A stretch of DNA of 64,000 bases from Escherichia coli. GTDB lineage: Bacteria > Pseudomonadota > Gammaproteobacteria > Enterobacterales > Enterobacteriaceae. The DNA lies in NCBI RefSeq assembly GCF_009931435.1, contig NZ_CP043414.1, one strand, 5' to 3'. Under the pieces are notes generated by a model. It saw only the letters and a program-made list of their open reading frames with translations. It did not search any database and was not told where the DNA came from. Numbering within the stretch: the first letter of the stretch is position 1; each line of letters opens with the position of its first letter. A program made the translations under genes and the position numbers. Shown one piece after another: positions 48,944-55,050 of this stretch.

Positions 48944-49246
48944 TCATTGTGTTCCCATTGATGTTCTTTTATATACCCTCAATACCCGTTTCATCGCGGC
49001 ACTCTGGCGACACTCCTTAAAAATCAGATTCGTGCTCACCTTTCCTTCCCATTCTTCTCTGGTAGCGAACCGGTAATACACCGTTCGCCAGACCTTACCA
49101 TCAACGACCAGGATTCCTGCCCGCGCCATTTTAGCCGCAGCCTGATTTATGCTGGTTACGGTTGCGCCTGTTACCGCGGCAACGTCCTGTGCACAGAAGC
49201 TCTTATGCGTCCCCAGGTAATGAATAATTGCCTCTTTGCCCGTCAT
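48944..49246 (-). CDS. ren: Ren-like protein
   Basis: ORF track 100 aa; immediately downstream of P as in lambda. Confidence 0.7.
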   Translation of the reverse strand: MTGKEAIIHYLGTHKSFCAQDVAAVTGATVTSINQAAAKMARAGILVVDGKVWRTVYYRFATREEWEGKVSTNLIFKECRQSAAMKRVLRVYKRTSMGTQ

Positions 49247-49944
49247 ACACTTGCTCCTTTCAGTCCGAACTTAGCTTTAATTTCTGCGATCTTCGCCAGA
49301 GCCTGTGCACGATTTAGAGGTCTACCGCCCATAACAGGAAGTTGTTTTACTGGTTCAGGTATCGTCTCACCACGGTTAATTCGCGCTGTCATACAGGTCA
49401 GTTCATCGGCAGCCTTGCGCCGTAATTCCGCGTCAGCCAGCGCATTGGCCCGCATGTTCTGGTACAAGTTGGTAACCAACCAGTAATGCGCGTTCGATTT
49501 CCACGGATAAGACTCTGCATCCGGATACAGGCCACGCTTCCGGCAATACTCGTAAACCATATCAACCAGCTCGCTGACGTTTGGCAGCCCGGCGTTAACA
49601 GATGCTTCTTCCCGGCACCAGGCGACAAACTGCCCGGGTGATGGCAGGAATGGTCGATTCTGCCGACGGGCTACGCGCATTCCAGCGTTAACCTGTTCCA
49701 TTGTGGTGATCCCGTTTTCCCGGAAAGCCAGAACCCACTGGCGGCGGATTTCGTTCAGTTCATTCTGGTCACGGTTAGCCAGGCTAGCCGGGAAAGTTGC
49801 CAGTAACTGGCTGAACACACCGTTGATGATCTGCGCTACCTGCTGTACCTGCGGCTTTTCGTCGTACTGTTCCGGCATATTGTTGGCGATCCGGCGCATC
49901 TGCTCACGGTCAAAGTTAACCATCTGTGCGGCGATGTTTTTCAT
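49243..49944 (-). CDS. P: Replication protein P (DnaB helicase loader)
   Basis: ORF track 233 aa, lambda gpP length. Confidence 0.9.
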   Translation of the reverse strand: MKNIAAQMVNFDREQMRRIANNMPEQYDEKPQVQQVAQIINGVFSQLLATFPASLANRDQNELNEIRRQWVLAFRENGITTMEQVNAGMRVARRQNRPFLPSPGQFVAWCREEASVNAGLPNVSELVDMVYEYCRKRGLYPDAESYPWKSNAHYWLVTNLYQNMRANALADAELRRKAADELTCMTARINRGETIPEPVKQLPVMGGRPLNRAQALAKIAEIKAKFGLKGASV

Positions 49945-50960
49945 AAATCCACCCCGTAAATCCAGTCAGTGTTCGTCAGGTCGAGTTTTGGTTTGCCGGC
50001 TGTCACGCCAGCCTGTTGCTTGTTTCGGTTGATTTCGAGCTGGGTCCACTTGTCGCGGAGTTTGGCCGGACTCAGCACGTTACCGGACCAGAAGTTGTCC
50101 TGGCATGCCCAGCGGAACAGCACGCACATGTCGCGGTGGTTACGTCCGTCACGTTCACGCATCAGGCGGATATCGTTAGCCCACCCTGCAAAATTCGGTT
50201 TTCTGGCTGATGGCGCGATGGTCTTCACCATGTCAAACATCCACTCTGCGGCGGTCAGGTCTTCTGCTGTCCCCCACTTGCTGCCACTCTGAATTGCAGC
50301 ATCCGGTTTCACCACAGGAAGGTCGTTTTCTGGCTGGTCAGAGGATTCGCCAGAATTCTCGGACGAAAAAGGTTTTATATTGTCTTTTGTTAGTTTGTCT
50401 TTTGTGTTTACCTGATTCGGGTAAACGCCTTTACCTGATTTGGGTAAACTTTTCTTACCTGATTCAGGTAAATTTACCTCTTTCAGGTAAACTTTATTTT
50501 TCTTACCTGATTCGGGTAATGTTGACCATTCACTGACCACATTATTAATGCCGATATTTCGCCCGCTCTGAATAAGAATCCCACGCTTTACCAGAACGCT
50601 TTTTGCAGCAGAACACTTGTGCGGCAATATCCCGGTCAATTCGGAAAGTTGCTCGTTGCTCACCCAATCCAGTCTTTTATTAAAGCCATATGTTTTGCGC
50701 ATGACAGCCAGGAAGACCAGAAGCTGGTGCTGTGTTAATCCGGCCAGCATCACAGCTTCCAGCAACTCATTTGCAATGCGCGTATAACCATCATCGAGAT
50801 CTGCCACGCGCGGCTCCTTTTGTGCCGCATCCGGCACTGGAAAATTGAATATCTCAGCAGTGTTTGCCATAATTCCTCCCGCAATGAGTGTGTTACGATT
50901 TGCACCTGAAAGTCGGTTCTGTTCCCGCAGACCGACTTTCGCCATTTCTGAACCTATCAT
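49941..50960 (-). CDS. O: Replication initiator O (lambda-like C-terminal half; non-lambda N-terminal half and iterons)
   Basis: ORF track 339 aa; contains ori iterons and AT-rich segment; start overlaps upstream stop (ATGA). Confidence 0.85.
   Translation of the reverse strand: MIGSEMAKVGLREQNRLSGANRNTLIAGGIMANTAEIFNFPVPDAAQKEPRVADLDDGYTRIANELLEAVMLAGLTQHQLLVFLAVMRKTYGFNKRLDWVSNEQLSELTGILPHKCSAAKSVLVKRGILIQSGRNIGINNVVSEWSTLPESGKKNKVYLKEVNLPESGKKSLPKSGKGVYPNQVNTKDKLTKDNIKPFSSENSGESSDQPENDLPVVKPDAAIQSGSKWGTAEDLTAAEWMFDMVKTIAPSARKPNFAGWANDIRLMRERDGRNHRDMCVLFRWACQDNFWSGNVLSPAKLRDKWTQLEINRNKQQAGVTAGKPKLDLTNTDWIYGVDL
50405..50525. repeat. Phage replication origin: about five iterons of the form TACCTGATTCGGGTAAAC inside the O gene
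   Basis: Direct repeats each with internal dyad TACC..GGTA, read on the + strand; adjacent AT-rich stretch. Confidence 0.7.
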
Positions 50961-51496
50961 ATTGCCCCCAGCATGGTGGTCACCATCGCCATTAATGGAC
51001 CAGCCAGATCCGGGTCCACACGAAACATCGACACAATACCTTCACTCATTTCCTTCAGTTTCTGGTGGCGTGGTGCGTTGAGAATGACAGCCTGTTTTGC
51101 CTCACTGAGTTCCTTTTCCATTTCAGCCAACCGAGTCATGAAGCTATCCTGCTCAACCAGGTAACCGCGATATTCCAGCGGTAGTACCGCCAGAATTGCC
51201 GGGGTCAGTTCACGCACGTTATTTCGGTATTTTTCAGAATCGAATTTGTTATCGAGGAAGCGGAACAGCTTCTGGCGTGCACGGCTGACATCATCAGGGA
51301 AATCGATGGTGCCGTCGCCCTGCTCCCGATACTCATTCACAATGAGTGCGGCAACGACATCCTGATTATCTACAGCCGACCAGGCGCGGACGGCATCACG
51401 GATTTTTTCGTGGCCTGGAGCTTGTTTTGTTTGAGAACGATTTATCACCGCAGTCGGAATAAATCCGCTAGTCTGTTGGTATGTAAGTGGTTGCAT
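50957..51496 (-). CDS. YdaT-like protein at the cII position
   Basis: ORF track 179 aa; follows the Cro-like gene and is coupled to O. Confidence 0.55.
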   Translation of the reverse strand: MQPLTYQQTSGFIPTAVINRSQTKQAPGHEKIRDAVRAWSAVDNQDVVAALIVNEYREQGDGTIDFPDDVSRARQKLFRFLDNKFDSEKYRNNVRELTPAILAVLPLEYRGYLVEQDSFMTRLAEMEKELSEAKQAVILNAPRHQKLKEMSEGIVSMFRVDPDLAGPLMAMVTTMLGAI

Positions 51497-51565
51497 AATT
51501 GACTCCTTTAGTTTGAATTGACTGTTAAGTTGATTGCTTATTGTTAAAGAGCGTGAAATGGAAAT

Positions 51566-51796
51566 TTAAGCTGCGTTCTTTTCGGTGTGTGGAAACAACT
51601 TCGGAAGATCCGGGCGAATCTGGTATGCCTTCACAACTCCACCAGTAGCCGTAACAATGCTGCCGACATGTTCAGGGGATACCTTTGCTTTGTTGTGAAG
51701 CCACTTATAGACGGCCTGCTGTGAAACTTCGCAGGCATCGCCTAGTTTCTTTTGTGAACCAACGATATTGATCGCTGTTTTGATTGCTGGGTTCAT
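51566..51796 (-). CDS. Cro/YdaS-like HTH regulator
   Basis: ORF track 76 aa; HTH (QQAVYKWL); divergent from repressor gene. Confidence 0.7.
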   Translation of the reverse strand: MNPAIKTAINIVGSQKKLGDACEVSQQAVYKWLHNKAKVSPEHVGSIVTATGGVVKAYQIRPDLPKLFPHTEKNAA

Positions 51797-51900
51797 AACA
51801 ACCTCCGTGGTTAATCCGAATCAAGATTAAAACTATGGTTGTTTTTAGTCAACAACCATTTTCGTTTGATGAAATAAAACCTTGGTTGTACATTTGATCT
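51797..51900. promoter_or_regulatory. Right operator/divergent promoter region with ATGGTTGTT-N7-AACAACCAT palindrome and extra TGGTTGT half-sites
   Basis: Inverted repeat read at about 51835..51859 between the divergent repressor and cro-like genes. Confidence 0.55.
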
Positions 51901-52590
51901 ATGAAAACAACACTCTCAGAAAGACTTAAAGAAGCCAGATTAGCGCGAGGCCTTACACAAAAGGCGCTTGGGGATTTGGTCGGGGTTAGCCAGGCTGCTA
52001 TTCAGAAAATCGAAACAGGGAAAGCTAACCAAACAACTAAAATCGTGGAGATCGCGAACGCTTTGGGTGTACGCGCAGAATGGTTATCTTCTGGCGTTGG
52101 AAATATGTCAGACAGTACAGTGCAACCAATACAATCAACTGTCAGCCATTCCAAATACTTCAAAATTGACGTTCTTGATATAGAAGTCAGTGCCGGGCCA
52201 GGTGTAATCAACCGTGAGTTTGTAGAAGTTCTACGCTCGGTTGAGTACTCGTTTGACGATGCTCGTCACATGTTCGATGGCAGGAAGGCGGAAAATATCC
52301 GCATCATTAACGTGCGAGGTGACAGCATGTCAGGGACGATCGAACCAGGTGACCTGCTGTTCGTTGATATCACTGTTAAATCTTTCGACGGTGATGGCAT
52401 CTATGCGTTTCTGTACGACGACACTGCCCATGTAAAACGTCTTCAAATGATGAAGGATAAGCTGCTGGTTATCTCTGATAACAAGAGCTACTCGCCGTGG
52501 GACCCGATCGAGAAAGACGAGATGAACCGGGTGTTCATATTCGGTAAGGTCATTGGAAGCATGCCGCAGACGTACAGGAAGCATGGTTAA
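51901..52590 (+). CDS. Prophage repressor, LexA/S24-peptidase type (CI analogue)
   Basis: ORF track 229 aa; N-terminal HTH plus C-terminal autoproteolysis domain. Confidence 0.85.
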   Translation: MKTTLSERLKEARLARGLTQKALGDLVGVSQAAIQKIETGKANQTTKIVEIANALGVRAEWLSSGVGNMSDSTVQPIQSTVSHSKYFKIDVLDIEVSAGPGVINREFVEVLRSVEYSFDDARHMFDGRKAENIRIINVRGDSMSGTIEPGDLLFVDITVKSFDGDGIYAFLYDDTAHVKRLQMMKDKLLVISDNKSYSPWDPIEKDEMNRVFIFGKVIGSMPQTYRKHG

Positions 52591-52819
52591 TTTATCTACG
52601 ACTTAAGGGAGCGAAGGTTAAGGTTTATACCACTCGGATTAGATATTGCACTAAATTCTCTATAAGAACGCCAAATCTGTTTGCATATTTCAGTAAATAT
52701 TCTCGTTGTTAGCTGAGATTTGTTGCTACTGTCAGCAAAATGTCTCCCTATCTCGTAGCGGTTTTTATTTCGAATCATTATGTTAAGATGTTTCTGATTA
52801 TAATGAATGGAAACATAAA

Positions 52820-53200
52820 ATGAGAAAAATCCTAATCGCTGCCATGATGGCATCTGTATTGGCTGGGTGTGCTTCTTCAGGCAACCAGCAACTCAAAAAT
52901 GAAACTGAAATTAGTGTCCAGTCTAAACTTCAGGAAGGTAAAACAACCAAGAATGAGGTTAAATCTTACTTTGGTTCTCCTGATGCTGTTTCATATACTG
53001 ACAGTGGAAAGGAGATCTGGAAGTACGCCTTTGCAAAAGTAAAAGTTAATGGCACCACTTTTATTCCATTCTATGGATTATTCCATAACGGAACGAACGG
53101 TACGAAAAAAGAACTTACTATTCTTTTTAACGATGACACGATTAAGAAATACACAATGTCAGAAACCCAAATAAACTCGAAATCAGGTTGGGCTGACTGA
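52820..53200 (+). CDS. Putative lipoprotein, unknown function (cargo gene downstream of repressor)
   Basis: ORF track 126 aa; signal peptide with lipobox LAGC; own terminator downstream. Confidence 0.7.
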   Translation: MRKILIAAMMASVLAGCASSGNQQLKNETEISVQSKLQEGKTTKNEVKSYFGSPDAVSYTDSGKEIWKYAFAKVKVNGTTFIPFYGLFHNGTNGTKKELTILFNDDTIKKYTMSETQINSKSGWAD

Positions 53201-53217
53201 TAATCATACCCGGCAAC

Positions 53218-53246
53218 CGCGCCGGGTTTTCTTTTCCTCCCCCTCA
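53218..53246 (+). terminator. Intrinsic terminator after the lipoprotein gene
   Basis: Hairpin cccggc-aaccgc-gccggg followed by ttttctttt. Confidence 0.65.
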
Positions 53247-53476
53247 TAACTCATACCGTCCAAAAAACCACCACACCTCACTTCAGTTATCGCTATGCGA
53301 TGCAAGTCACAAAATAAATCCATCCTAAATACAACCAGTTATATTTAAAACAACCGATAAAACAACTTTTGTTGTTGACGATAAAACAACTATAGTTTTA
53401 AATAAATTCATCGCAACGACACAACGATACGGTAACCACCTGTTTCACCGTTGCGATGACCGCTTAGATCCGCAGT

Positions 53477-53887
53477 TTGAATTTCAGCAGGCTTCGGGGA
53501 GTGCGAGGGGTGAAACGGACGCGTGAACGTCGGTGTGACCAGCTGAAATCAACACAACACTTTATACCTCAGTCGCTTCAACGAGGCGGCTTAGTTATGA
53601 CAACCGGCGGCCATCCACCGCCTGAATACGCGCAGAAGTCTCTATATGTTCAGCAGCCCAGCTTACGGGCAGGAGTTTTTATGGTTCATCAACATTACGG
53701 AACGCAGACCGTTAATCGAGGTGCGGTCATGCCAGGAATGCTGGTCAAACACAAAGATGGTACCTGGACTGCATCAGCTAATTTACGCGGACGGCTTTAT
53801 CTGCATCGCGGCATCGAGCGCACTTATACCCGTGATTTGCTCGTGGAAGTTTTTCTCGACGGACGCGGTAACGGCCTGAATCGCTAA
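53477..53887 (+). CDS. Hypothetical protein at the early-left position (possible start at 53597)
   Basis: ORF track 136 aa from a non-ATG start; first ATG (MTTGG...) has a weak RBS; in frame with and 75 bp upstream of gam. Confidence 0.4.
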
Positions 53888-53962
53888 TCCCCTTTCCTGT
53901 TTTCCTAATCAGCCTGGCATTTCGCGGGCGATATTTTCACAGCCATTTTCAGGAGTTCAGCC

Positions 53963-54259
53963 ATGAACGCTTATTACATTCAGGATCGTCTTGAGGCTCA
54001 GAGCTGGGCGCGTTACTACCAGCAGATCGCCCGTGAAGAGAAAGAGGCAGAACTGGCAGACGACATGGAAAAAGGCCTGCCCCAGCACCTGTTTGAATCG
54101 CTATGCATCGATCATTTGCAACGCCACGGGGCCAGCAAAAAAGCCATTACCCGTGCGTTTGATGACGATGTTGAGTTTCAGGAGCGCATGGCAGAACACA
54201 TCCGGTACATGGTTGAAACCATTGCTCACCACCAGGTTGATATTGATTCAGAGGTATAA
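53963..54259 (+). CDS. gam: RecBCD inhibitor Gam (short form)
   Basis: ORF track 98 aa; recognised lambda Gam C-terminus ...[10 protein letters not shown]. Confidence 0.9.
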
Positions 54260-54264
54260 AACGG

Positions 54265-55050
54265 ATGAGTACAGCACTCGCAACGCTGGCAGGGAAGCTG
54301 GCTGAACGTGTCGGCATGGATTCTGTCGACCCACAGGAACTGATCACCACTCTTCGCCAGACGGCATTTAAAGGTGATGCCAGCGATGCGCAGTTCATCG
54401 CATTGCTGATCGTCGCCAACCAGTACGGCCTTAATCCGTGGACGAAAGAAATTTACGCCTTCCCTGATAAGCAGAACGGCATCGTTCCGGTGGTGGGCGT
54501 TGATGGCTGGTCCCGCATCATCAATGAAAACCAGCAGTTTGATGGCATGGACTTTGAGCAGGACAACGAATCCTGTACATGCCGGATTTACCGCAAGGAC
54601 CGTAATCATCCGATCTGCGTTACCGAATGGATGGATGAATGCCGCCGCGAACCATTCAAAACCCGCGAAGGCAGAGAAATCACGGGGCCGTGGCAGTCGC
54701 ATCCCAAACGGATGTTACGGCATAAAGCCATGATTCAGTGTGCCCGTCTGGCCTTCGGATTTGCTGGTATCTATGACAAGGATGAAGCCGAGCGCATTGT
54801 CGAAAATACTGCATACACTGCAGAACGTCAGCCAGAACGCGACATCACTCCGGTTAACGATGAAACCATGCAGGAGATTAACACTCTGCTGATCGCCCTG
54901 GATAAAACATGGGATGACGACTTATTGCCGCTCTGTTCCCAGATATTTCGCCGCGACATTCGCGCATCGTCAGAACTGACACAGGCCGAAGCAGTGAAAG
55001 CTCTTGGATTCCTGAAACAGAAAGCCACTGAGCAGAAGGTGGCAGCATGA
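54265..55050 (+). CDS. bet: Single-strand annealing recombinase Bet
   Basis: ORF track 261 aa; lambda Bet-like. Confidence 0.95.

Follow-up and report, generated by a model that had tools for sequence, protein, structure and literature searches.

Repeats on both sides of a 434-like prophage repressor gene of Escherichia coli are probably its right and left operators

Phages 434 and lambda and the prophages CP-933P and Rac are the described systems to which the immunity region analysed here can be compared. In phage 434, the repressor carries an S24 C-terminal domain and binds operators of 14 bp in which the outer ACAA/TTGT is conserved, whereas the centre varies and is recognised by indirect readout (Koudelka et al. 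1987, as cited in PMC3317979). OR and OL comprise three sites each, and the recognition helices of cI and Cro are alike. In lambda, cI and cro diverge, the operators are 17 bp long, O1 falls within the PR spacer and -10, and the end of O2 overlaps the TTGACT -35. The lambda sites span 47 bp from O1 to O3, with O2 placed for PRM activation and O3 for PRM repression. Lambda cI and CP-933P paaR2 are leaderless (PMC8630535). For PaaR2 of CP-933P in E. coli O157:H7, binding was shown by EMSA and footprinting (PMC8630535, PMC9986795); this lambdoid switch has a YdaS-like Cro, a YdaT-family CII equivalent, four OR repeats, and a PL-like promoter with OL sites that match them. In Rac, the repressor gene is followed by a divergent ydaS-like cro and then a ydaT-family gene.

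We analysed a 64-kb stretch of DNA (the window), in which the immunity region belongs to a lambdoid prophage with 99.7% identity to Escherichia phage PhiR26_1. Sequence comparison makes it highly probable that the AACAAC/GTTGTT repeats in this region are the right and left operator sets of a lambda-style switch with a 434-like repressor. The switch design is the textbook one, without a new mechanism; what is new is the predicted DNA specificity. In the ORF list, cro and cI are divergent, as in lambda, with 104 bp between them (Table 1), and the corresponding PhiR26_1 genes are annotated as Cro and cI. Downstream of cro, a 179-aa protein (50957-51496) matches Pfam YdaT_toxin (E 7e-30) and is a putative YdaT-family CII equivalent; the order of repressor, YdaS-like cro, and ydaT-family gene is shared with Rac and its components with CP-933P. 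TTGAY-N6-TTGATT repeats are present at 51518-51535 and 51768-51785. As in lambda, cI is followed by a cargo slot, and OL is situated on PL, ahead of recombination genes (kil, gam, bet, and exo are downstream of PL; P, O, gam, bet, and exo are lambda-like). Differences from lambda are that no N gene follows PL and that the CII equivalent is of the YdaT family. Homoimmune phages carry a GevT/GevA or HipA-like cassette in the slot instead, and the cI-to-OL distance ranges from 235 to 1844 bp among 80 loci; the terminator ahead of OL is kept in relatives. An Rfam search of 51000-54500 gave no meaningful match. The same immunity module, made up of cro, OR, and the DNA-binding domain of cI, was found in 1,523 of 5,426 complete E. 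coli genomes (28%), with up to four copies in a single genome.

Table 1. Genes, predicted operators, and promoter elements of the immunity region (window positions)
Feature	Sequence	Position	Strand	Remarks
cro		51566..51796	-	76 aa, lytic repressor; ORF; PHROG 35 transcriptional repressor, E 1e-27
O-SD, candidate fourth operator	ACAACCTCCGTGGT	51798..51811	.	One mismatch to pattern; centred on cro Shine-Dalgarno
PR -10, putative	TAATCT	51824..51829	-	Cross-genus register
O1R	AAAACTATGGTTGT (ACAACCATAGTTTT on - strand)	51829..51842	.	Exact pattern match; in PR spacer, touches -10
PR -35, putative	TTGACT	51847..51852	-	Overlaps first base of O2R
O2R	ACAACCATTTTCGT	51852..51865	.	Between divergent -35 elements of PR and PRM
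PRM -35, putative	TTGATG	51866..51871	+	Directly after O2R
O3R	AAAACCTTGGTTGT	51876..51889	.	Exact pattern match; in PRM spacer, last base inside PRM -10
PRM -10, putative	TACATT	51889..51894	+	cI ATG 6 nt further on
cI		51901..52590	+	Repressor, 229 aa; 434-like HTH_3 N-terminal domain and S24 autopeptidase domain
Cargo gene		52820..53200	+	126-aa lipoprotein; ORF, PHROG 3135; in cI-OL slot, rexAB equivalent; outside the switch
Intrinsic terminator		53208..53227	+	Ends cI-cargo transcript ahead of OL; 7-pair stem with 6 G-C pairs, then T run
O3L, tentative candidate	ACAACCAGTTATAT	53331..53344	.	Left half matches well, right half poorly; 31 bp from O2L
Extra repeat copy	AAAACAAC	53347..53354	+	Probably unconstrained as half-site
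O2L	ACAACTTTTGTTGT	53362..53375	.	Perfect palindrome, exact match on both strands; last base is first of PL -35
PL -35	TTGACG	53375..53380	+	
O1L	ACAACTATAGTTTT	53386..53399	.	Exact pattern match; in PL spacer and -10; 24 bp from O2L
PL -10, putative	TTAAAT (17-bp spacer) or TAAATA (18 bp)	53398..53404	+	Placed by analogy with PR

The cI product matches Pfam HTH_3 (E 1e-12) and Peptidase_S24 (E 1.8e-18). Its translation contains an Ala98-Gly99 site and the autopeptidase residues Ser142 and Lys179, which are 37 residues apart, as are the corresponding Ser and Lys in LexA. Residues 5-68 matched the 434 repressor N-terminal domain (1per_L; phmmer E 4.5e-9), and the best solved relatives were the DNA-binding domains of the 434 repressor and 434 Cro (E 1.7e-9 to 2.7e-7). 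A specificity unlike that of lambda cI had been suggested from the sequence, and this agrees with a DNA-binding domain and a predicted operator that are both 434-like; the lambda operators are unrelated in sequence and 17 bp long, versus 14 bp here. PaaR2 differs in having no reported S24 domain, in its 18-bp palindromic motif (consensus GTTTAGTAA), and in the toxin-antitoxin pair downstream of its gene. RacR is short (annotated as 477 nt) in comparison with the HTH-S24 repressor, and the proposed comparison with the racR-ydaS operator of K-12 revealed no ACAAC-N4-GTTGT site there and unrelated repeats of the TTAGGC type. The Cro encoded here is a member of the lambda-Cro/YdaS-like family (PHROG 35), as opposed to the 434 Cro fold family, and matched Xfaso-1 Cro (PDB 3bd1) weakly.

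The initial annotation had described a ATGGTTGTT-N7-AACAACCAT inverted repeat and additional TGGTTGT half-sites between cI and cro, and AACAAC-TTTT-GTTGTT with flanking AAAACAAC direct repeats and a -35-like TTGACG upstream of the early-left ORF. These elements are present: the inverted repeat is a perfect 9-7-9 at 51835-51859, the half-sites lie at 51883 and, on the opposite strand, at 51852, and AACAAC-TTTT-GTTGTT spans 53361-53376. The direct repeats start at 53347, 53359, and 53383; the copy at 53347 is poorly conserved, with independent substitutions at 53348, 53350, 53351, and 53353 in E. coli loci. The two regions are the densest AACAAC/GTTGTT clusters of the window, with 4 copies per 110 nt versus 0.98 per kb overall. 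The refined pattern ACAACNNNNGTTKT occurs in the 64 kb only at 51829, 51876, 53362, and 53386, giving 5 strand-matches where 0.28 ± 0.59 were expected; none of 100 shuffles had 5 or more. A 19-nt stretch is 95% identical between the OR and OL regions (51827-51845 and 53383-53401). Perfect 9-7-9 repeats number 9 in the window versus about 2.6 in shuffles, and the palindrome on its own is unremarkable. The signal is the motif common to both regions rather than the palindrome.

The recognition unit is, in all probability, a 14-bp ACAAC-N4-GTTGT site, whose length and outer ACAA/TTGT are those of phage 434 operators. The 9-N7-9 palindrome corresponds to the adjoining consensus halves of O1R and O2R around the PR -35 rather than to one operator. 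A 17-bp lambda-like unit, AAAAC-N7-GTTTT, was first suggested by the 47-bp span from O1 to O3, the same as in lambda. It was dropped because the AAA flank is unconserved (positions -3 to -1 carry low information, and 53360 has a variant) and because O2L, O3R, and the 434 homology all suit 14 bp. A site-like sequence inside cI (52033-52046) has two mismatches and codes for a conserved QTTKIV; it was judged incidental. A literature search with the exact operator strings returned one irrelevant match; this Cro/OR pair may have an entry among the Cro half-sites compiled by Hall et al. (2005/2011).

In 82 and 77 E. coli loci, 1 of 50 outer positions of the five strong sites varies, compared with 7 of 20 central and 34 of 107 flanking positions (Fisher tests, p = 7e-6 and 4e-4). 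This within-species sample is shallow, since the loci are related and all 80 IMG/VR loci encode an identical repressor. The cross-genus set comprises 16 loci from at least 12 genera with repressors carrying the SQAAIQK helix. The expected conservation in relatives was found there: the sites keep fixed positions while their central 4 bp and flanks drift. Counted from the cI ATG, the OR sites are at -25, -49, and -72 (O3R at -25/-26 in all loci with the SQAAIQK helix, O2R at -49/-50 in the 16 loci, and O1R at -72/-73 across genera). The spacings of 23 bp (O1-O2) and 24 bp (O2-O3) recur in 14 and 15 of the 16 loci, respectively, and the O2L/O1L pair is 0.8-2.7 kb from cI. O1R has invariant outer and variable central bases in the 82 E. 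coli loci, and O3R is mostly a perfect ACAAC-N4-GTTGT with 4 free central bp. Among 128 half-sites, the counts were A1 127, C2 96, A3 116, A4 127, C5 118, and Y6 117. A Pectobacterium group keeps the helix and O3R and has a different left side of OR.

PR, PL, and PRM were all absent from the list of a generic promoter scan because their -10 hexamers match T1, A2, and T6 only; promoter positions were assigned by cross-genus conservation instead. The predicted transcript starts are about 51817 for PR, about 53410 for PL, and 51901 for PRM. For both PR and PRM, TTGnnn-17-TAnnnT is in register with the sites in the 16 loci. At PRM, TTG is kept right after O2R and the 17-bp spacer is found in 15 of 16 loci. 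The right half of O2R (TTCGT), which abuts the PRM -35, is non-consensus yet conserved. In the 16 loci, TAnnnT is followed after 6-8 nt by the cI ATG, without a Shine-Dalgarno sequence. Because only 6 nt separate the PRM -10 from the ATG, cI is probably translated from a leaderless mRNA, as in lambda and CP-933P; 434 cI, by comparison, has an annotated ribosome-binding site.

PL is laid out like PR: GTTGT runs directly into TGAC of the -35, a junction common to both, and an operator follows within the spacer. O2L is invariant in 77 E. coli loci and perfect or near-perfect, in the same register, in 15 loci; it is followed by TTGAC in 13 of these 15, by TTGAT in one, and by TGACAC in one. O1L varies in E. 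coli at central bases only, its 24-bp spacing to O2L recurs in 14 of 15 loci, and TA-rich hexamers occupy the PL -10 place in all loci. For O3L, ACAACC at 53331 provides the left half of the candidate, kept in the 77 E. coli loci bar one variant, and other genera have sequences of the ACAACC-AAAT-A type upstream of O2L. Its distance from O2L equals the 31 bp between OL2 and OL3 of phage 434. The AAAACAAC copy at 53347 was rejected as O3L, as its ACAAC varies at four positions and it has a 2-bp overlap with O2L; 53331-53344 is tentatively preferred.

The cI recognition helix is Q31-A32-A33-I34-Q35-K36, and the Cro helix SQQAVYKW runs parallel to it; cI and Cro helices are alike, as in 434. The Cro helix covaries with the cI helix and with the operator half-site. 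The cI helix SQAAIQK occurs with the Cro helix SQQAVYK or SQAAVQK and the half-site ACAAC, SQPAIQK with SQPAVHK and ATAAC, and AQPTIWR with AQPTVWR and ATA(G/C)(C/G). In 434, for which the operators were taken from the annotated genome OL657226, TQQSIEQ and KQQSIQL are found with ACAA(G/T/A). By 434 numbering, A or Q at position 29 corresponds to C at half-site position 2 and P to T, and K or R at position 33 corresponds to C, G, or S at half-site position 5. In the heteroimmune relatives Lambda_4C10 and PhiR30_1, the flanks are homologous, and replacement is confined to cro, OR, the N-terminal domain of cI, and the OL block; OR and OL there share another motif, with ATA(G/C)(C/G)-N4 sites. 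The proposal that the two regions are OR and OL operators of one repressor is supported at every point open to sequence analysis: the motif lies between cI and cro, recurs at PL in the same layout, keeps its positions across genera, and is swapped together with the helices. Sequence and comparison show the sites, their registers, their conservation, and this co-replacement with the recognition helices.

The likeness to 434 extends to homologous N-terminal domains, the S24 domain, and three sites each at OR and OL (O3L being a candidate here). The 434 helix contacts Q28, Q29, S30, and Q33 align with Q31, A32, A33, and K36, so that between QQSIEQ and QAAIQK three of four contact positions differ. 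Half-site position 5 is C here (118 of 128 halves) versus G, T, or A in 434. Given the differences in the helix and at position 5, we predict heteroimmunity with 434. The OR spacings are 23 and 24 bp here versus 22 and 23 bp in 434, which has overlapping -35 elements and an OR1 positioned downstream of the PR -10; the arrangement here, with O1 in the PR spacer and separate -35 elements, is lambda-like, as are the overlap of O2 with TTGACT and the placing of O2 and O3 relative to PRM.

A site over the cro ribosome-binding site, O-SD, would be a further difference from lambda. Its CTCC is GGAG on the - strand, and within the PR transcript it would occupy about +6 to +19. Across genera, 13 of 16 loci have it in the same place with at most one mismatch, its spacing from O1R varying between 27 and 32 bp, and in the heteroimmune group this place holds a cognate half-site. 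Like the candidate O3L, O-SD has one good half. Its conservation could instead serve translation. We consider it possible, if somewhat doubtful, that OR has four working sites rather than three, with the extra one on the cro Shine-Dalgarno sequence kept in at least 10 genera, and that helices and half-sites follow a parallel code. CP-933P also has four OR repeats. If the proposal is true, O-SD would give CI or Cro a post-initiation hold on cro that is absent in lambda, and the parallel would amount to a small natural code with which prophage immunity could be predicted or re-engineered.

In the proposed mode of operation, CI dimers would bind the 14-bp sites through the half-site A-C-A-A-C-Y, with the outer 5 bp of each half contacted and the central 4 bp free. 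By analogy with lambda and 434, CI on O1 and O2 would shut PR and PL in the lysogen. At O2R, CI may touch RNA polymerase at PRM and stimulate the leaderless cI transcript, and O3R would mediate negative autoregulation, possibly with the help of OL-OR looping. RecA-stimulated cleavage at Ala98-Gly99 would inactivate CI, and Cro would then take the same sites and shut PRM. The weaker O-SD may impose an additional block just past the PR start. For the order of binding, cooperativity, activation, looping, and what the fourth site does, we argue from analogy with described switches.

Binding of the motifs by one regulator (e.g., Cro alone), by the YdaT-family CII-like activator, or by a host factor, so that they would not be CI operators, is very unlikely. 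The YdaT-family gene adjoins cro, and since the operators, cro, and the N-terminal domain of cI are invariably exchanged as a set, comparison alone does not assign the sites to one protein. However, changes in the half-site are accompanied by parallel changes in both the cI and the Cro helix, the homologous 434 repressor domain has the same 14-bp ACAA...TTGT geometry, and the sites overlap PRM precisely where CI autoregulation is expected. A YdaT relative that has been solved and footprinted recognises TTGATT-N6-AATCAA (PMC9986795), and the TTGAY-N6-TTGATT repeats of the window lie elsewhere than these sites.

Still less probable is that the 25-bp palindrome (51835-51859) is the unit, acting as a long operator or as a hairpin terminator or insulator between cI and cro. 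It is a perfect repeat and is kept in a Providencia phage; a terminator scan lists both strands with T-rich tails, and the hairpins are predicted at -8.9 and -10.8 kcal/mol (z = -1.95 and -3.9). Against this, the stem is A/U-rich with only 3 G-C pairs, and the palindrome would be untranscribed by the two main promoters, since it is upstream of the putative PR and PRM starts and holds the PR -35 in its loop. The opposite arrangement at OL (AACAAC-N4-GTTGTT) is reconciled only by the 14-bp unit. In Brenneria, the O1R orientation is flipped and the long palindrome is gone, whereas the 14-bp sites remain, and the identity outside the pentamers is explained by a Y6-A7 preference of all half-sites. 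We give the lowest probability to common ancestry or duplication of A/T-rich PR and PL regions without selection for repressor binding. PR and PL do share about 45 nt of similar layout in an A/T-rich region, and the A-rich tracts found upstream of PL may function as UP elements. However, O3R matches on another promoter, PRM, the outer pentamers stay while centre and flanks drift in E. coli (p = 7e-6) and across genera, and heteroimmune relatives keep the promoter scaffold and change the pentamers with the helices. Repressor operators of 14 bp remain the preferred reading.

The picture of how such switches operate is unchanged by these operators. From the 14-bp site and its layout one can predict homoimmunity between prophages, with mutual repression or exclusion, and can locate PL, PR, and PRM as well as the variable slot for defence genes that separates cI from OL. 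The half-sites ACAAC, ATAAC, ATA(G/C)(C/G), and 434 ACAAG/T would represent natural specificity variants on one scaffold for studies of HTH-DNA recognition.

The initial annotation had proposed AACAAC/GTTGTT motifs as OR and OL operators of one repressor. These motifs lie in the immunity and early region of a lambdoid prophage (window 49-56 kb), which is reversed relative to the lambda map. Escherichia phage PhiR26_1 is 99.7% identical over 2.1 kb around the operators, and its gene annotations match those of the window. The repressor contains the Pfam domains HTH_3 (1e-12) and Peptidase_S24 (1.8e-18), and among solved structures its nearest relatives are the 434 repressor and 434 Cro, in their DNA-binding domains (E 1.7e-9 to 2.7e-7). 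As read from the sequence, its residues Ala98-Gly99, Ser142, and Lys179 fit the LexA-type self-cleavage motif, with the spacing of LexA.

Features of the immunity and early region (window positions)
Feature	Position	Strand	Remark
P	49243-49944	-
O	49941-50960	-
CII equivalent, 179 aa (annotated cII)	50957-51496	-	YdaT family, Pfam PF06254, E 7e-30
cro	51566-51796	-
PR	-35 TTGACT 51852-51847; -10 TAATCT 51829-51824	-	cross-genus register
PRM	-35 TTGATG 51866-51871; -10 TACATT 51889-51894		cross-genus register
O1R	51829-51842
O2R	51852-51865
O3R	51876-51889
cI	51901-52590	+
Lipoprotein gene, 126 aa	52820-53200	+
Terminator	53208-53227		3' of lipoprotein gene
O3L	53331-53344		weak candidate
O2L	53362-53375
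O1L	53386-53399
kil, gam, bet, exo		+

We recovered the perfect 9-7-9 inverted repeat (51835-51859), the additional TGGTTGT copies, AACAAC-TTTT-GTTGTT (53361-53376), the AAAACAAC repeats (53347, 53359, and 53383), and the TTGACG -35-like element (53375-53380). AACAAC/GTTGTT clusters elsewhere in the 64 kb are all less dense than those of the cI-cro and PL regions, which have a 19-nt stretch in common (95% identity). Nine perfect palindromes with 9-bp arms occur in the window versus ~2.6 in shuffles; such a palindrome alone is thus not rare here, and the signal is the motif common to both regions. All motif copies fit a 14-bp unit, ACAAC-N4-GTTGT, in which the weaker half is often GTTTT. Across the whole window, ACAACNNNNGTTKT has matches at 51829, 51876, 53362, and 53386 alone (0.28 expected), and O2R (ACAACCATTTTCGT, two mismatches) completes the OR set. 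It follows from this unit that the 9-7-9 palindrome consists of consensus halves of O1R and O2R facing across the PR -35. AACAAC-TTTT-GTTGTT is O2L itself.

When aligned, PR (- strand, GGTTGT|TGACT-AAAA-ACAACCATAGTTTT-AATCT) and PL (+ strand, TTGTTGT|TGACG-ATAA-ACAACTATAGTTTT-AAATA) follow one layout. The spacer of PR or PL contains O1, and that of PRM contains O3R. O2 abuts the -35 of PR or PL and, at OR, also that of PRM. A generic promoter scan did not report PR, PRM, or PL; across 16 loci from different genera, TTGnnn-17-TAnnnT elements for PR and PRM, one on each strand, keep a constant register to the sites. In these loci, 6-8 nt without a Shine-Dalgarno sequence separate the PRM -10 from the cI ATG, implying a leaderless cI mRNA. 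Lambda cI and CP-933P paaR2 are leaderless (PMC8630535).

The 16 loci, all with the SQAAIQK recognition helix and a cro-type neighbor, comprise the window, Providencia phage PSTCR7lys, and 14 of the 33 loci that a scan with the helix peptide found in one genome for each species. The genera represented are Escherichia, Providencia, Kosakonia, Klebsiella, Izhakiella, Serratia, Morganella, Xenorhabdus, Rosenbergiella, Arsenophonus, Erwinia, and Brenneria, plus one Chryseobacterium-labeled record. Sites are located at -25, -49, and -72 from the cI ATG, with O1-O2 spacing of 23 bp in 14/16 and O2-O3 spacing of 24 bp in 15/16. In 14 of 15 loci, two sites 24 bp apart were found on a TTGAC promoter 0.8-2.7 kb downstream of cI. 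Half-site counts (n = 128) were A1 127, C2 96 (A 29), A3 116, A4 127, C5 118, Y6 117, and A7 85, with low information in flanks and center. In the Chryseobacterium sp. 18061 record (L108), the immunity region is of enterobacterial type and has OR and OL in their full layout, which suggests a contaminated or mislabeled assembly. In ten Pectobacterium/Samsonia loci (L090-L098, L120), the repressor has the SQAAIQK helix and O3R at -25 is perfect, but OR has a different left half, and an ORF search found no cro-type neighbor in them; the same specificity seems to serve a differently wired switch.

Within E. coli, 80 IMG/VR loci encode an identical repressor, with differing cargo between cI and OL. 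Over 82 OR and 77 OL sequences, 1/50 outer positions of the five strong sites varied, versus 7/20 central (Fisher test, p = 4e-4) and 34/107 flanking positions (p = 7e-6). Candidate O3L is better conserved than the AAAACAAC copy at 53347, which has substitutions at four positions.

A further operator-like sequence, ACAACCTCCGTGGT (51798-51811), is centered on the cro Shine-Dalgarno. It has at most one mismatch to the pattern in 13 of the 16 loci, at a variable 27 to 32 bp from O1R and with the better half on different sides, and heteroimmune relatives carry a cognate half-site at this place. Lambda has no equivalent, and translation constraints between Shine-Dalgarno and ATG could partly explain the conservation. 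Whether this fourth site is functional seems to us evenly balanced. Inside cI, ACAACTAAAATCGT (52033-52046; two mismatches) encodes the conserved QTTKIV, and in Pectobacterium homologues these codons differ from the operator pattern by one mismatch; the likeness is probably incidental to coding.

Lambda_4C10 and PhiR30_1 have the OL-flanking sequences and the whole early-left region in common with this prophage. In both, cro, OR, the N-terminal domain of cI, and about 90 nt at OL are replaced, and ATA(G/C)(C/G)-N4 sites in unchanged registers are common to the new OR and OL.

Recognition helices and half-sites of four types
Type	cI helix	Cro helix	Half-site
Window's module	SQAAIQK	SQQAVYK or SQAAVQK	ACAAC
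Stx phage PA28	SQPAIQK	SQPAVHK	ATAAC
4C10 type	AQPTIWR	AQPTVWR	ATA(G/C)(C/G)
Phage 434	TQQSIEQ	KQQSIQL	ACAA(G/T/A)

Both Gln at the place of 434 Gln28 and A at half-site position 1 are invariant. The base at half-site position 2 follows the residue at the place of 434 Gln29 (C with A or Q, T with P). These correlations point to 434-like docking of the repressor. The 434 operators in the annotated genome (ACAAGAAAGTTTGT, ACAAGATACATTGT, ACAAGAAAAACTGT, ACAAGGAAGATTGT, ACAATAAATATTGT, ACAAACTCCATTGT) resemble the window's sites in the 14-bp length and outer ACAA/TTGT. In contrast, OR1 of 434 is downstream of the -10, with overlapping -35 elements, whereas lambda has the window's site/promoter arrangement. 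The Rac racR-ydaS region, which the initial annotation had suggested for comparison, has a different motif, and CP-933P differs in both repressor and motif. The operator strings had no match in the literature searched, a search that did not extend to the Hall/Cordes Cro-OR compilation.

The palindrome could instead be read as a hairpin or terminator. However, the hairpin is weak (-8.9 and -10.8 kcal/mol, 3 G-C pairs), is located upstream of the two transcription starts, and has lost its palindromic form in Brenneria. Binding of the motifs by another protein is at odds with the parallel changes of the cI and Cro helices, and the YdaT-family CII equivalent is better suited by separate TTGAY-N6-TTGATT repeats. 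Promoter ancestry alone would explain common sequence at PR and PL, but O3R matches the pattern although it belongs to another promoter, and the pentamers of heteroimmune relatives are changed in an unchanged scaffold. The operator reading is retained.

The direct repeats TTGACT-N6-TTGATT and TTGATC-N6-TTGATT (51518-51535, 51768-51785) are located, respectively, between cro and the YdaT-family gene, the expected place of PRE, and within the cro 5' end. They are candidate binding sites of the YdaT-family protein; a characterized YdaT binds TTGATT-N6-AATCAA (PMC9986795). The cI-OL interval (52591-53330), equivalent in position to lambda rexAB, is a variable cargo slot of 235-1844 bp in 80 loci (L001-L004, L007-L086). 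In this prophage the slot is filled by the lipoprotein gene, whereas PhiR47_2 has GevT/GevA and PhiR5_1 a HipA-like pair; in many other loci it is nearly empty. The same terminator ends every version. No N-like gene was found between PL and kil/gam (53405-53600). The ~150-nt leader there is 94-99% conserved, heteroimmune relatives included, and its first hairpin is strong (CAUCGCAACG...CGUUGCGAUG, ~53408-53459). The leader matched no Rfam family and did not resemble HK022 at the DNA level; a put-like antiterminator RNA that acts independently of protein is one possibility.

Sequence and comparison establish the sites with their registers and conservation, and the replacement of sites and helices together. 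By analogy to lambda and 434, PR and PL would be repressed by CI dimers at O1 and O2, and PRM would be activated by CI at O2R. O3R would mediate autorepression, perhaps helped by looping between OL and OR, ~1.5 kb apart. Prophage induction would follow RecA-stimulated cleavage at Ala98-Gly99, and Cro would shut PRM by binding to the same sites as CI. The immunity module (cro, OR, and cI N-terminal domain; 51566-52140) is present at ≥95% identity in 1,523 of 5,426 complete E. coli genomes, at up to four places per genome, showing that many strains carry several homoimmune prophages or remnants. The immunity specificity is real, common, and apparently uncharacterized, and the architecture is textbook.
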